Source: an uncultured delta proteobacterium
Lineage (GTDB): Bacteria > Desulfobacterota > Binatia > Binatales > Binataceae
Reading direction: 5' to 3'
Assembly (NCBI GenBank): GCA_963711565.1
Contig: CAVQEQ010000003.1
Coordinates: 160,001-224,000 of the forward strand
Length of the DNA stretch: 64,000 nucleotides
Made by a program: the position numbers and the translations under genes. Position 1 is the stretch's first letter, and each line of letters begins with the position of its first letter. Under the pieces are notes generated by a model that worked only from the letters and a program-made list of their open reading frames with translations, was not told the DNA's origin and searched no databases. Shown here piece after piece: positions 50,222 to 55,055 of the stretch.

Positions 50222-51319
50222 ATGCAGAAGCCAATTATCTCCGCAGATTCTCATATCACCGAGCCGCCCAACACTTACATCGATCGAATCGATCGCAAGT
50301 ATAAGGATACTGCCCCGCACATGATTCACGACGCGAAGCTCGGCGATGTCTTCATCGTCAAGGACTTCCCGCGTCCGATCAACGTCGCGCTCGCTGCCGC
50401 CGCGGGCAAGGATGCGAGCGAGCTGCGGACTATTGGCGCGAAGTTCGATGAGATGCACAAGGGCGGATGGGATCCCAACGCGCGCATGGCCGACCAGGAT
50501 CGCGACGGCGTCGCCGCCGAAGTCATCTACCCTACAGTCGGCATGGTGCTCTGCAACCATCGCGACTTCGACTACAAGAAAGCATGCTTCGACGCTTACA
50601 ACCTCTGGATAGGCGAGTACTGCGCGGCGCATCCCGATCGGTTGATAGGATGCGGGCAGACTGCGATGCGGTCGGTCGAGGAAGGAATCTCGGACCTGCG
50701 CAAGATGAAGGAACTCGGGCTCAAGGGTGTCATGATGCCCGGTAACCCCGCGCTCGAGGACTACGACAGTCCTATCTATGCGCCTTTCTATGAGGCCGCG
50801 ATCGACCTGCAGATGCCACTGAGCTTTCACATCCTGACCAGCAGCAGCGATAACTTCCAGACCCGCGGGCCCAAGCTGAACAGCTTCCTGTCGATCATCC
50901 GCGGATGCCAGGACATTATCGGCACTTTCGTTCTCGGCGGAGTTTTCGAGCGTCATCCAAAGTTGAAAGTAGTATGCGTCGAGGCTGACGCCGGATGGGT
51001 GCCGCACTATATGTATCGGATGGATCATGCATACGACCGGCATCGCTACTGGCTACCGGCCGGCACGCTTACCAAAATGCCTAGTGAGTATTTCCGCGAG
51101 AACGTTTACACTACCTTCCAGGACGACTATGTAGCATTCCAAGTCCGCAATCTTTGCAACATCAAACGCCTGATGTGGGCGAGCGACTTCCCCCATAGCG
51201 ACTCGACCTGGCCGTGGTCGCAGGACGTCATCAGCAAGCACACCGTCGGAATGACCGCGGACGAGAAGAACCTGGTGCTGCACGACAACGTCGCGGAACT
51301 GTACCATCTGAGCATCTAG
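50222..51319 (+). CDS. Amidohydrolase_2 family protein
   Basis: SADSHITEP, PLSFH, VEADAGW, WASDFPHSDSTWP. Confidence 0.9.
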   Translation: MQKPIISADSHITEPPNTYIDRIDRKYKDTAPHMIHDAKLGDVFIVKDFPRPINVALAAAAGKDASELRTIGAKFDEMHKGGWDPNARMADQDRDGVAAEVIYPTVGMVLCNHRDFDYKKACFDAYNLWIGEYCAAHPDRLIGCGQTAMRSVEEGISDLRKMKELGLKGVMMPGNPALEDYDSPIYAPFYEAAIDLQMPLSFHILTSSSDNFQTRGPKLNSFLSIIRGCQDIIGTFVLGGVFERHPKLKVVCVEADAGWVPHYMYRMDHAYDRHRYWLPAGTLTKMPSEYFRENVYTTFQDDYVAFQVRNLCNIKRLMWASDFPHSDSTWPWSQDVISKHTVGMTADEKNLVLHDNVAELYHLSI

Positions 51320-51468
51320 GGCATATTCGATCCCACGCGACGGATTTTGCCCAGCCGAAGCGACTAACCGATGAGGTTAGCGCTCGAACGGGTAAGGTCT
51401 GCCGTCCAGTGGGTGCACAATTATCGACGGAGAAAGGGCGGTTGGCGTCCGGTCGGAGATTCTCGCTT

Positions 51469-52008
51469 GTGACCGCCGCTGAGCCGCAACGATCTTCGGA
51501 GCCCGATCTCATCGCCCGTCTCAAAGCTGGCGACGAAGACGCGGCGCACGAGTTCTTCGATCGCTACGCATCACGCATTCGGCGTTTCATCGCGAATTCT
51601 CTGGGCGCCGCGGCCGCCGAGGCCGACGACGTGCTGCAGGAGACTTTCATCGCGCTGGCCGACGCGCTGCCGTTTTTTCGAGGCGACAGCTCGTTGTTCA
51701 CGTTTGCCTGTGCAATCGCGCATCGCAAGGTTCTTTCGCTGATCCGCACCAACGCGCGCCGCGCGCGCCTGATGCGCGCGGCTCCCCTCGAGCAGGGCGC
51801 TGCGCCGCGAGACCCAAGCGCTAATCGAGAACTCAGCCGCGCTCTCGCGCAACTTAGGCTCGATTACCGCGAAGTGTTGCTGCTCAAGTACGTCGAAGAA
51901 CTCGGCGTGGCGGAAATCGCGCGAATACTGCGGCTCGGAGAGCACGCGGTGGAATCGCGGCTTGCACGCGCACGAAAAGCTCTTCGCAATAACCTGCGGG
52001 AAGATTAA
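51469..52008 (+). CDS. ECF-type RNA polymerase sigma factor
   Basis: Region 2 (ADDVLQETF..FRGDSSLFTF) and region 4 (REVLLLKY..EIARIL..VESRLARAR); ~179 aa from GTG 51469. Confidence 0.9.
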   Translation: MTAAEPQRSSEPDLIARLKAGDEDAAHEFFDRYASRIRRFIANSLGAAAAEADDVLQETFIALADALPFFRGDSSLFTFACAIAHRKVLSLIRTNARRARLMRAAPLEQGAAPRDPSANRELSRALAQLRLDYREVLLLKYVEELGVAEIARILRLGEHAVESRLARARKALRNNLRED

Positions 52009-52466
52009 TGGAACCTGAAAAAACAGAATCAGAATTTGCGGCTAGAATACAATCTGCGATCGAACCCGCTCGCGGAGTGGACGATCGCGGCCTCAGGAAC
52101 ACATTCAGCGCACGGCTTAAGCGAGTCGCCGCCCGTCCTGAAGTCGTGCCGATCGAGTTCGACGGACAGAAGATCAACGTACGCCGCGGTGGCACTCTGC
52201 TCGGCGCGGCGATGAAGAACGGTGTCCGCCTGATGCATGTTTGCGGCGCCCGCACATTGTGCGCGACCTGCAGGGTCGTGGTGGAGTCGGGAGAGGACAA
52301 CCTGACGCCGATGCGCGCGACGGAGAAGTTCTCGCTGCGATGGCATCTGTCGGTGAGCCCGCGAACGCGACTGGCGTGCCAGGCGCGCGTGAGCGGGCCA
52401 GTCGAGGTTGAATCGGTTTTTCCGCATTGCGGTGAGTTGCCAAATGAGTCATTGCGCGGAACTTAA
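52008..52466 (+). CDS. [2Fe-2S] ferredoxin-domain protein with a ~45-aa N-terminal extension
   Basis: C-x5-C-x2-C ... RLACQ motif; TAATG stop/start overlap with the sigma gene. Confidence 0.85.
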   Translation: MEPEKTESEFAARIQSAIEPARGVDDRGLRNTFSARLKRVAARPEVVPIEFDGQKINVRRGGTLLGAAMKNGVRLMHVCGARTLCATCRVVVESGEDNLTPMRATEKFSLRWHLSVSPRTRLACQARVSGPVEVESVFPHCGELPNESLRGT

Positions 52467-52520
52467 CCCTAACCCTTCGCCGCTCGGGAACGGCTAGCGG
52501 ATTTTGTGGAGTAGATCGAT

Positions 52521-52766
52521 ATGTCGTGGCCGATAAAATTTCGCGCGATGAGTTTCGCTATTACGATGGGGGTGACAATCACGGAATCGGTAATGGCATC
52601 GATGCCTGTTGCGCTCGCGCTTTGGTATTTCGATGTTGCGAGCGGTAGGGCGATTCTGGAAGCTGTCGTGGTGATTGTAGCCATCGTGTCGCTCTCGATA
52701 TCGATTTATTCGCACGTGCGTCCGGCTCAATTCTCGCCGCGTGGGCCCGAAGAAGGGGTGCTATGA
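52521..52766 (+). CDS. Small two-TM membrane protein
   Basis: GGAG RBS, two hydrophobic segments, ATGA overlap with the next gene. Confidence 0.55.
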   Translation: MSWPIKFRAMSFAITMGVTITESVMASMPVALALWYFDVASGRAILEAVVVIVAIVSLSISIYSHVRPAQFSPRGPEEGVL

Positions 52767-53209
52767 AGACCAAAATTCCGCGGTGGGTCGTTCCACTCCT
52801 CTGGCTCCTGGCCGCGATGCACATCGTCAACGGCTTCGCGATGTTCTTCTTTCCTTCCGGATGGTTCTTCAAATTGGTGCCCGGCGTGCCTGAGACCGGT
52901 GCGTACAATATGCACCTGGTGATGGACGGCGGGACGTTCTTCCTCGCGGTCGGCGTAGGACTGGTGGCCGCCGCGCTGAACCCGCGCCGCAATGCAATCG
53001 CGGTTGCCGTTGCCGCGGTCGCGGGCGTGATGCATTCCGCGCTGCACATATACTCACATGCCGCCGGCCTGCTCTCGACTGAGCATCTTGTGACCGAGCT
53101 ACTGGGTATCTACATTCCCGCGATCTTACTAATCGCAATCACGGCTATCCTCTATAGCCAGTCGGTCGAAGCGAAAGACTCGTTCATGAGTTTGGTTGAG
53201 GCGAAGTAG
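52763..53209 (+). CDS. Four-TM membrane protein with several His residues
   Basis: PGVPETGAYNMH, HSALHIYSH and hydrophobic helices; GGGG RBS-like site. Confidence 0.75.
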   Translation: MKTKIPRWVVPLLWLLAAMHIVNGFAMFFFPSGWFFKLVPGVPETGAYNMHLVMDGGTFFLAVGVGLVAAALNPRRNAIAVAVAAVAGVMHSALHIYSHAAGLLSTEHLVTELLGIYIPAILLIAITAILYSQSVEAKDSFMSLVEAK

Positions 53210-53218
53210 GATACAACT

Positions 53219-53770
53219 ATGAGAATCCAGGCACTCGAAAATAACCAAGTCAGTTGGATGATTCGGCCGCTGTACGGAATGATGCGGCGACGATTCGGCA
53301 AAGTGCTGACGCCATTCAAGGTGTGGGGATACCGCCCGGCGATCACGCTGGGACTGGCCGGCCTGGTTCAAGCGGTCGATCATTCAAACGCGATCGCGCC
53401 GCGGACCAAGGATCTGGCGAGCCTCCGCGCCGCTCAATTGATCGGTTGCAGTTTCTGTATCGACATCGGTTCCGCGATCGTGATGCGGCTCGGCGTGACC
53501 GAGGAAATGCTCGCCGCTCTGGACACCTACGACGAGAATCCGCTCTTCACCCCCGCCGAACGCGCCGCGATCCGATACGCGGAAGAGATGACGCGAACGC
53601 CGGTCGAAGTGTCCGACGAGACCTTCGCCGAACTGCGGCGTCATTTCGACGATCGAGCACTGGTGGACCTGACGGCGGCAATCGCGCTGGAGAATCTGCA
53701 CGCGCGCTTCAACTGGGCTTTTCAAATCGAGAGCGACGGCCTCTGCCGACTGCCGCTGAATCCAGCCCTC
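53219..53770 (+). CDS. Carboxymuconolactone decarboxylase/AhpD-like protein; 3' end uncertain
   Basis: GCSFCIDI (CxxC), ERAAIRYAEEMT, LRRHFDD, ARFN. Family-like sequence ends near GLCRLP, but the frame stays open to 54691. Confidence 0.8.
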
Positions 53771-53930
53771 GCGCGCCGGCCACAACTGACCGGGAGCGCC
53801 GTTTCGGTCGAAATTCATATTTTCCTCGCCTCGCGCGAGCCTGATAGTATCCGCGACGTTACTCTGCCGGGCCGTAACTGTGGCCCGGCGGCGCGGTTAC
53901 TCTATTCGAGAGTTGAAAGGCAATCTCACC

Positions 53931-55055
53931 TTGAAGCAATGGTGCGCGATAGCTCTCGTCCCGACGCTCGCACTGATTGCGATTGTAGGATGCTCGCACG
54001 GGCCGGCCGATACTTTCGGCGAGCGCGACGCCGTGCCGATTCTCGCGGCCAAGGTCGTGCAGAAGACTGTCTCCGATACGATTCGTGCGATAGGCCGAGT
54101 CGAGGCTTTCTCGACCGTCGATGTGAAGGCGCAAATCAACGGCCAGGTCATGCAGGTCCATTTCCTCCAGGGGCAGGACGTCAAGCAGGGCGACCTGCTG
54201 TTCACGATCGATCCGCGCCCGTTCGAGGCCGCGCTGCAACAGGCGCAGGCCAATCTCGCCAAGGATCGCGCGCAATACCGCGAGGCTGCGGCCGACGAGC
54301 ATCGCTACTCCGTGCTGCTCAAGGAGAACGTCGGATCGCGCCAGCAATACGATCAAGTCGAGGCGACCGCGGCCGCGCTCTCGGCCTCGATGCAGGCCGA
54401 CGAAGCTGCGGTGCAGACCGCGCGCTTGAATCTCGAGTACTGCGAAATCCGCGCGCCGATCGACGGCCGCACCGGCGACCTGCTCGTGCATGCCGGCAAT
54501 CTCGTCAAGCCCGATGCCGACACGGCGATGGTCGTCATCAACCAGGTGCATCCGGTGTACGTCAACTTCGCGATTCCCGAGCAGAAGCTGCCCGCCGTTC
54601 GCGAGTTCATGGCGGACCGCAAGCTCGCAGTCCAGGTCTCGTTGCCCGAGCAGCAAGGGGTCGAGTCCGGCGATCTTACGTTCGTCGATAACACCGTCGA
54701 TGCGAAGACCGGCACGATAAATCTCAAGGGACAGTTCGCCAACACCAACGGGCGCCTGTGGCCGGGCGAGTATGTCAACGCGACACTGATCCTCCACGAT
54801 CACCCCGGCGCGATCCTGGTGCCATCGCAGGCTGTGCAGACCGGCCAGCAAGGCTCGTTCGTGTTCGTCGTGCAGTCGGCGATGAAAGTCGAGCTCAGGC
54901 CGATCGTCGTCGGCGAAACGATCGACAATCAGACTGTCGTCAACAGCGGACTCAAGGCCGGCGAAACTGTCGTGACCGACGGGCAGCTCCGCCTGATTCC
55001 CGGCGCCACCGTCACCATCAAGAGCGGCTTGACCGAGAGCGGCGCGTCATCATGA
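53931..55055 (+). CDS. RND efflux periplasmic adaptor subunit (MdtA-like)
   Basis: Lipoprotein-type signal (IVGC), GQDVKQGDLLFTIDPRPF, IRAPIDGRTG, VVTDGQ. Start TTG 53931 or upstream at 53880. Confidence 0.92.
   Translation: MKQWCAIALVPTLALIAIVGCSHGPADTFGERDAVPILAAKVVQKTVSDTIRAIGRVEAFSTVDVKAQINGQVMQVHFLQGQDVKQGDLLFTIDPRPFEAALQQAQANLAKDRAQYREAAADEHRYSVLLKENVGSRQQYDQVEATAAALSASMQADEAAVQTARLNLEYCEIRAPIDGRTGDLLVHAGNLVKPDADTAMVVINQVHPVYVNFAIPEQKLPAVREFMADRKLAVQVSLPEQQGVESGDLTFVDNTVDAKTGTINLKGQFANTNGRLWPGEYVNATLILHDHPGAILVPSQAVQTGQQGSFVFVVQSAMKVELRPIVVGETIDNQTVVNSGLKAGETVVTDGQLRLIPGATVTIKSGLTESGASS

Follow-up and report, generated by a model that had tools for sequence, protein, structure and literature searches.

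A sigma factor of the extracytoplasmic function (ECF) type of a Candidatus Binatus bacterium is encoded immediately before a [2Fe-2S] ferredoxin. We propose, with a probability of about 0.5, that this ferredoxin serves as a soluble anti-sigma, and that the two belong to a three-gene regulatory cassette controlling a redox pair made up of a membrane protein and an AhpD-like protein of selenocysteine (Sec) or Cys form. The window, ie the whole 64,000-nucleotide (nt) stretch of DNA that was analysed, comes from a metagenome-assembled genome (MAG) of 4.84 Mb in four contigs. The five genes lie on the + strand of the window between 51469 and 53789, in the order sigma factor, ferredoxin, tm2 (a small membrane protein), tm4 (a His-rich protein with four transmembrane (TM) segments, the 4-TM protein) and AhpD-like protein. 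There is a more far-reaching version, to which we give slightly less than even odds. It is that a complete adrenodoxin-type [2Fe-2S] ferredoxin, having gained an N-terminal clamp of two helices, represents anti-sigma factors of a new class, which are soluble, cytoplasmic and redox-sensing, and that with tm2 it makes up a portable three-gene cassette through which the redox state of the cluster or of the membrane controls a pre-existing antioxidant pair of membrane protein and seleno/thiol AhpD-like protein.

The sigma factor and the ferredoxin coupled to it

The sigma gene (51469..52008, + strand) has a GTG start and a TAA stop at 52006-52008. Its product of 179 amino acids (aa) is matched in Pfam by Sigma70_r2 (E 3.5e-10), Sigma70_r4_2 (E 7.8e-14) and Sigma70_ECF, and scores 80 bits with TIGR02937, for which the cut-off is 42.9. 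With only the sigma-2 and sigma-4 domains in its 179 aa it is an ECF (group 4) sigma factor, and the nearest solved relatives by profile are likewise ECF sigmas (6in7_B, SigW and RpoE). The NCBIfam equivalog models all scored far under their cut-offs. The protein ends one or two residues past region 4.2 with no further domain, and so does not belong to ECF41, whose members carry a C-terminal SnoaL-like extension; the absence of that extension had been correctly noted in the original prediction. The single cysteine of the sigma factor, C81 (51709-51711, in the stretch FTFACAIAHRK), is invariant in 21/21 aligned orthologues, and a redox role of its own is conceivable.

The ferredoxin (152 aa) starts at an ATG at 52008, which shares the last A of the sigma stop codon (TAATG), so that the overlap of the sigma stop with the start of a soluble protein, as first described, amounts to one base. 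Pfam Fer2 matches residues 53-128 with 38.6 bits (cut-off 21), and the cysteines are arranged as C79-x5-C85-x2-C88-x35-C124, with a further one at C141. Both the ligand spacing and the extra C-terminal cysteine had been seen in the letters at the outset. The four ligands show no variation in 50 sequences, nor does C141 in a 23-sequence alignment of the clade which reaches down to 55% identity. A profile of the family matches the Escherichia coli iron-sulphur cluster (ISC) ferredoxin 1i7h (E 4.8e-13), as well as putidaredoxin and adrenodoxins, and in each case the match starts at about residue 45. E. coli Fdx (1i7h) is the best solved match by profile, with a Foldseek identity of 28-30%, and in Foldseek the Fer2 part alone finds matches, for example 9i2a_A (TMt 0.84 over 95 columns). 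The ligand pattern, the Fer2 match, 1i7h and Foldseek together place the domain (52143..52466, + strand) among the adrenodoxin/ISC-type [2Fe-2S] ferredoxins. It is not the ferredoxin of the ISC system itself: TIGR02007 gives 43 bits against a cut-off of 132.1, and the gene stands in a sigma operon. A separate ISC-like ferredoxin is encoded elsewhere in the same genome (G000 C1:258131-258409), with a reductase-like gene as its neighbour and a LexA-like gene upstream, and that paralogue is an ordinary carrier.

What sets the protein apart is its N-terminal extension (residues 1-45; 52008..52142, + strand), the candidate sigma-binding part. A charged, helical segment of about 45 aa had been predicted here, and the details agree: 17/45 residues are charged, there is no His or Cys, and an AlphaFold2 model built from the 50-sequence alignment (pLDDT 80.6, pTM 0.65) has helices at 3-23 and 27-42, in blocks of pLDDT 64-77, followed by a confident Fer2 domain (85-96). 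That model replaced an earlier one from the 23-sequence alignment, which was unusable (pLDDT 43). F33, L37 and A41 are invariant in the 23 sequences and L29, R36 and V40 nearly so. These residues are spaced i, i+4 on one face of the helix, and the pattern persists in the 50-sequence alignment. The ratio of nonsynonymous to synonymous substitution (dN/dS) across 17 coding sequences is 0.33 for the extension and 0.14 for the Fer2 domain. Both parts are therefore under purifying selection, the extension more loosely, and conservation of the extension, on which the original prediction had depended, is borne out. A word-indexed protein search with the ferredoxin gave 307 matches, of which 120 were listed. 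These have lengths of 129-150 aa and identities of 71-99%, and with 5 exceptions they span at least 91% of the query, which makes the extension a part of the ferredoxin family.

Outside that family nothing like the extension was found. No Pfam family matched residues 1-50 at E up to 10, an extension hidden Markov model (HMM) found no paralogue among the 39,411 open reading frames (ORFs) of the window genome, and the segment is specific to this clade. It is not a class I or zinc-binding anti-sigma (ZAS) domain, since it has two helices over about 42 residues, no HxxxCxxC and no Pfam match. In none of the five products was there an anti-sigma or zf-HC2 Pfam family or an HxxxCxxC motif, in agreement with the first reading that no zinc anti-sigma gene is present. 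No fusion of sigma to Fer2 was found among the 5 longer matches. One of them, P0241, was considered as a fused form and rejected as a read-through artefact joining ferredoxin, tm2 and tm4. The nearest longer relatives are Fer2-guanylate/adenylate cyclases (P0242, 42% identity), with the membrane-anchored Fer2-cyclase P0243 aligned by hhalign at a probability of 97.7% and 38% identity; five of eight Atlas structural-neighbour clusters pair Fer2 with cyclase and/or CDGSH.

The position of the ferredoxin gene carries weight in this genome. An HMM of the sigma factor found 10 further ECF-like genes, and behind 6/10 the +1 ORF has an H-x3(4)-C-x2-C motif, read by eye and not from Pfam; three more are followed by small +1 ORFs with a hydrophobic stretch, also judged by eye. 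Because six of the ten +1 genes carry that motif, the rule that the +1 gene encodes the anti-sigma holds here. Orthologues of the sigma factor itself (E < 1e-70) occur only in genomes which also hold the ferredoxin. The next-best matches (E 1e-21 to 1e-25) are paralogues, several of them with ordinary one-TM anti-sigma genes of the HxxxCxxC type behind them.

Gene order, promoter-like motif and a separable cassette

The ferredoxin was found at 106 loci, 8 from a genome search, 24 on genome contigs and 74 on metagenome contigs; about 7 of the 8 are from the same genomes as the 24-contig set. Only loci with room for the gene in question were counted, which for the sigma gene meant at least 300 nt of sequence upstream of the ferredoxin. 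On that basis sigma is directly upstream of the ferredoxin in 87/87 loci, tm2 follows the ferredoxin in 88/89 (the miss is L113), the 4-TM gene is present in 74/76 (misses L009 and L039) and the AhpD-like gene in 62/62. The survey thus upholds the five-gene order, and it finds the ferredoxin consistently in the position expected of an anti-sigma gene, as had been claimed from the one sequence. In the 95 loci with a sigma match upstream, the sigma stop overlaps the ferredoxin start in 65 and is separated from it by 1-16 nt in 28, with 2 not callable; the range over the 93 loci with a called start is -25 to +16 nt.

Further along, the gap between ferredoxin and tm2 is -1 to 18 nt in 16/19 relatives, and tm2 and tm4 overlap, stop with start, at ATGA. 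A search of 51200-54000 turned up neither a sigma-70-type promoter nor an intrinsic terminator, and Rfam gave no match in 51250-53300 (E up to 1). From the tight ferredoxin-tm2 gap and the lack of such a promoter or terminator, the five genes look like one operon behind a promoter-like motif. In the window the ferredoxin-tm2 spacer (52467-52520) is occupied by a 54-nt insert starting CCCTAACCC, where most relatives have 0-18 nt. Three other loci (L021, L022 and L035) have longer inserts with CCTAACCCCTAACCCC and a GGGAAGGGG palindrome, and the insert looks like a small element of the repetitive extragenic palindromic (REP) type. One metatranscriptome run (X20) contained an exact 213-nt contig (52359-52571) across the ferredoxin-tm2 junction; a single contig, given that DNA may be present in RNA libraries, is too little to claim co-transcription.

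The motif, GCGACGGAT-N14-GCGACTAAC (51337..51368, + strand), lies about 100 nt upstream of the sigma start. Its core, GACGGA-N16-C[GC]AC[TC]AA, is present in 21/21 aligned upstream regions and is kept even where the sigma factor is only 50-62% identical and the rest of the spacer has diverged. The strict motif has 6 matches in the 4.84-Mb genome, and only the copy at the sigma operon was found upstream of a gene start; of the other five, the three inspected are in or over coding sequence. The motif is a candidate for an ECF promoter that is autoregulated and serves a small regulon. Its second half is overlapped by a perfect inverted repeat, CTAACC-GATGA-GGTTAG (51364-51380), which is kept within the genus and could form a 5' stem-loop in the transcript or be bound by a protein.

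The five genes do not always travel together. The same 151 Binataceae genomes were searched with a ferredoxin profile (E <=1e-30) and a 4-TM profile (E <=1e-45). The ferredoxin was present in 38/151 and a strong 4-TM orthologue in 50/151. The two genes occur together in 36 genomes; in 14 the 4-TM gene stands without the ferredoxin, and 2 others hold the ferredoxin but lack a strong 4-TM match. Ten loci of the 4-TM-only kind were inspected (L140, L147, L150, L151, L157, L160, L162, L165, L172 and L173). In 10/10 the 4-TM and AhpD-like genes are present with no sigma or ferredoxin match, and the surroundings are those of the window, with an amidohydrolase match upstream in 8/10 and an MFP (HlyD-type adaptor) match downstream in 8/10. 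The tm2 gene was not found in 9/10, and L172 holds a partial tm2-like stretch. The distance from the amidohydrolase to the 4-TM gene is only 53 and 88 nt in L162 and L165; at others of these loci the space is taken up by unrelated ORFs. Several of the genomes belong to the window's own genus, with 4-TM proteins 74-88% identical to that of the window. A more distant genome (L144) has a 4-TM relative and a Cys-form AhpD-like gene, with no sigma or ferredoxin match at the locus. The joint presence and absence of sigma, ferredoxin and tm2, together with the persistence of the 4-TM/AhpD-like pair, marks the three as a separable cassette gained or lost as a block, and one which is probably regulatory.

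All the ferredoxin loci belong to one family or class (Binataceae, Binatia), with synteny that extends even to the amidohydrolase and MFP genes on either side. In the window the 5' flank is an Amidohydro_2 gene (50222-51319) and the 3' flank is a resistance-nodulation-division (RND) efflux pair, consisting of the MFP gene at 53880-55055 and a pump extending to 58216, a 1152-aa ORF named by eye. Synteny of this efflux pair is kept in nearly all relatives, whether or not they carry the sigma cassette. Distant Fer2 relatives (L132-L137, L046 and L011; 36-49% identity) do not adjoin sigma genes. A phylum-level sample of 301 genomes yielded only the window's own genome and one match to Fer2 only. 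As far as searched, the sigma-ferredoxin system is confined to Binatia.

The membrane proteins and the AhpD-like protein

The tm2 gene (52521..52766, + strand) encodes 81 aa without a family match in Pfam or NCBIfam. It had been described as a 2-TM protein; a crude hydropathy scan supports one strong hydrophobic segment, and the first of the two is weaker. The residues M1, W3, R8, S11, F12, E22, P29, H65 and P68 are invariant, and the N-terminal peptide MSWPxKxRxxSF is conserved. The tm4 gene (52763..53209, + strand) encodes a protein of 148 aa with four hydrophobic segments and 6 His, exactly the His-rich 4-TM protein of the original prediction. Neither membrane protein has a cytoplasmic domain. 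In the 4-TM protein H51, D55, H91, H95, H99 and E112 are invariant, and the spacing of three of its His at i, i+4 and i+8 suggests a metal or heme site. The protein is DUF6632/DUF4345-like without belonging to either family (DUF6632, 25.4 bits against a cut-off of 27; DUF4345, E 0.081). Its Atlas feature matches are DUF4345-like clusters, up to 0.96, which serve as a lead only, and a literature search found nothing on the function of DUF6632 or DUF4345.

The AhpD-like gene (53219..53789, + strand) is a clear member of the CMD/AhpD family, with Pfam CMD (PF02627) at 40 bits against 23 and a CxxC at C77-S-F-C80, as first proposed. The nearest named family is NF053654, 'YciW-related (seleno)protein', which covers positions 3-177 of 179 with 136 bits; this is under the cut-off of 310, a value exceeded in 0/301 genomes searched. 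The window has the Cys form. Codon 80 (53456-53458), the second Cys of the CxxC, is TGA in 20/25 relatives (loci L009 and L021-L044), including the most divergent ones, and the window and five close relatives have Cys. The TGA is likely to specify selenocysteine, giving a motif C-x-F-U, and such Sec/Cys exchange at the second position marks it as the redox centre of the enzyme, ie a CxxC/CxxU redox protein. A tRNA-Sec gene (anticodon tca; G000 C1:1184871-1184966) is present in the window genome although its own AhpD-like gene is of the Cys form.

The 3' end of this gene is broken as assembled. The original prediction had placed the end of the string at 53770, where there is no stop; the frame is open to 54691, giving a 490-aa ORF which runs into the MFP gene. 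In contigs from three public soil runs (X3, X6 and X8) there is a 'CG', within a CGCGCG run, after 53774 which is absent from the window; X6 and X8 are from other studies and X3 is maybe the source sample. With the 'CG' restored the product is 190 aa and ends at a TGA stop at 53787-53789. The relatives' proteins are 181-199 aa as called, with two further ones shortened by frame breaks, and a DNA alignment with close relatives shows the window's copy of the gene to have a tail 7 nt shorter. The ORF of 490 aa is an artefact of assembly, probably due to a long-read error. Similar frame breaks occur in several related MAG loci (L023, L025, L026 and L044).

Proposed mechanism, alternatives and related systems

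The mechanism we favour would work as follows. The two N-terminal helices of the ferredoxin would hold the sigma factor in the manner of the short class II anti-sigma domains, with the Fer2 domain as a sensor of the redox state or integrity of its cluster, Cys141 as a possible extra switch, and release of sigma when the cluster is oxidised or lost. The tm2 protein may dock or feed the ferredoxin at the membrane. Freed sigma would transcribe its own operon from the conserved motif, and the raised levels of 4-TM protein and thiol/selenol oxidoreductase would counter stress from peroxide or disulfides at the membrane.

Several points weigh against this proposal. Contact between sigma and ferredoxin is something we infer from gene position and coupling, and the count of 87/87 does not represent independent events, since the loci are from a single lineage with shared flanks; no second, independent lineage pairing a sigma factor with this ferredoxin was found. 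No similarity between the extension and an anti-sigma domain of any kind could be detected, and at about 45 aa it is half as long as a class I domain. In the Fer2 domain all four ligands are retained and conservation is far stronger than in the extension (dN/dS 0.14 against 0.33), which would also suit a working electron carrier, and the kinship of the domain to sensors is not exclusive, the best solved profile match being the E. coli ISC ferredoxin. Lastly the motif contains a GCGAC direct repeat, and could equally be a direct-repeat operator for another regulator.

The main alternative is that the ferredoxin is simply a member of the regulon, an electron carrier for the membrane and AhpD-like module under stress, perhaps docking on tm2 through its extension, with sigma controlled from elsewhere or by transcription alone. 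The adrenodoxin/ISC-type fold with its full set of ligands, the strength of Fer2 conservation, the place of the gene in a tight string with membrane proteins and the lack of an anti-sigma signature in the extension all fit such a carrier. However, the 4-TM/AhpD-like pair occurs without the ferredoxin in 14/50 genomes, at the same chromosomal site where inspected, so the pair does not need it; this argues against the ferredoxin as an obligatory electron donor and fits a regulatory add-on. There is no ferredoxin reductase gene in the operon, whereas the ISC-like paralogue adjoins one, and the ferredoxin is never without sigma at loci with room. In addition, it would be unusual for an ECF sigma to be autoregulated and have no inhibitor. 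On balance we consider a carrier role unlikely, though deserving of serious attention.

The coupling and the cassette are silent on the sign of the effect, and so would serve equally for a positive partner, an Fe-S co-activator or stabiliser like the WhiB-like (Wbl) proteins, with sigma active only while the cluster is intact. There is precedent, as WhiB-like Fe-S proteins bind sigma-A and activate transcription. The ferredoxin has no similarity to Wbl proteins, however, and a gene coupled to an ECF sigma encodes as a rule an inhibitor, as is suggested by six of the ten other +1 genes in this genome. Positive feedback through an autoregulated promoter would moreover be hard to switch off if there were an activator but no brake, and a positive role for the ferredoxin seems to us improbable. 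That tm2 is the real anti-sigma, with the ferredoxin as its accessory sensor or maturation factor, is very improbable: it shares the cassette with sigma and ferredoxin and has the conserved peptide MSWPxKxRxxSF, but the roughly 12 residues before its first hydrophobic segment and 17 after its last are too little for a known sigma-binding domain, and tm2 is not the gene coupled to the sigma stop.

Returning to the ferredoxin as anti-sigma, its putative binding part would come closest in size to the class II anti-sigma domains. In CnrY with CnrH, and in NepR, the sigma factor is bound across sigma-2 and sigma-4 by a short two-helix segment some 30-45 residues long. The extension is of similar size, with two predicted helices and one conserved hydrophobic face, and a pair of helices would suffice for holding an ECF sigma. 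No sequence similarity to the class II domains was found, and there are differences of setting: CnrY is membrane-anchored and NepR has no sensor domain. RsmA of Streptomyces is reportedly a [2Fe-2S] anti-sigma.

In its architecture the system is closest to ChrR. The soluble anti-sigmas of non-canonical ECFs named in the available text of a review are the ZAS proteins ChrR, RshA and RseA, the partner-switch protein NepR, and CfrX, with soluble partners that are predicted only for ECF125, 127, 270, 271, 286 and 292 (PMC8999054). As with ChrR-RpoE of Rhodobacter sphaeroides (ECF11) and RshA and RseA of Mycobacterium tuberculosis, the gene immediately behind that of the ECF sigma encodes a partner which is soluble and cytoplasmic; the N-terminal part would bind sigma and the C-terminal domain would sense, with an oxidative or redox signal (PMC8999054, text available in part). 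Those proteins have a four-helix zinc domain with HxxxCxxC, whereas here there are two predicted helices without the motif. The sensor differs too, being a cupin or the ZAS domain itself in ChrR, RshA and RseA, and in the present case a complete adrenodoxin-type Fer2 domain.

By cofactor the closest analogues would be the Rieske partners of ECF127, with RshA also stated to coordinate a [2Fe-2S] cluster (available part of the supplement to PMC7826278). In ECF127, of the Actinobacteria, a soluble Rieske [2Fe-2S] protein in the +1 position has been proposed as anti-sigma on prediction only, and, like the ferredoxin here, is without homology to described anti-sigmas (PMC7826278 and the same part of its supplement). 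The two differ in fold (Rieske against Fer2) and in phylum, and some of the Rieske partners have twin-arginine translocation (Tat) signals whereas the ferredoxin is cytoplasmic; both systems are predicted only. In the part of that supplement available, the term 'fer2' occurs 0 times, three mentions of 'ferredoxin' are unrelated, and there is no group with a Fer2 partner. ECF41 (SigJ-like) offers another parallel, namely an ECF sigma gene adjoining a CMD/AhpD-family gene and, in that group, also DoxX; but ECF41 sigmas have a SnoaL-like extension and no anti-sigma, and the present sigma factor of 179 aa has no extension and a coupled partner (same partial supplement). A full-text search, judged on titles and the start of abstracts, found no published ferredoxin-type ECF anti-sigma, and to that extent the statement in the original prediction that the system is undescribed still stands.

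Fer2 domains of this kind are used in signalling elsewhere. CyaC of Sinorhizobium meliloti has a [2Fe-2S] centre and a cyclase joined to a 6-TM di-heme-B anchor, and senses the quinone pool (PMC10463352, text available in part). Its Fer2 domain and those of CyaC-like Fer2-cyclases are homologous to that of the window's ferredoxin (38-42% identity for P0242 and P0243), and in both cases redox signalling, here proposed, would take place beside His-rich membrane helices (PMC10463352, same text). In CyaC, however, Fer2 is fused to anchor and cyclase, while here it is a separate protein beside small membrane proteins with sigma as the proposed output. The 4-TM protein was considered as a homologue of the CyaC-like anchor and rejected (hhalign probability 0.07%).

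ECF sigmas are the most numerous alternative sigma factors, and their soluble anti-sigmas are hard to recognise from sequence; the authors of the 2021 ECF classification thought it probable that further soluble variants exist (PMC7826278, available text). If the proposal is true, the use of a whole electron-transfer ferredoxin as the sensor half of an anti-sigma would add the state of a [2Fe-2S] cluster to the input modules of ECF sigmas, and the pair could supply synthetic circuits with an orthogonal redox-responsive sigma/anti-sigma switch. The case would further illustrate how a regulator cassette may be bolted onto an existing effector pair, for which the close Binatus genomes with and without the cassette amount to a natural experiment, in a lineage of abundant, uncultured soil bacteria.

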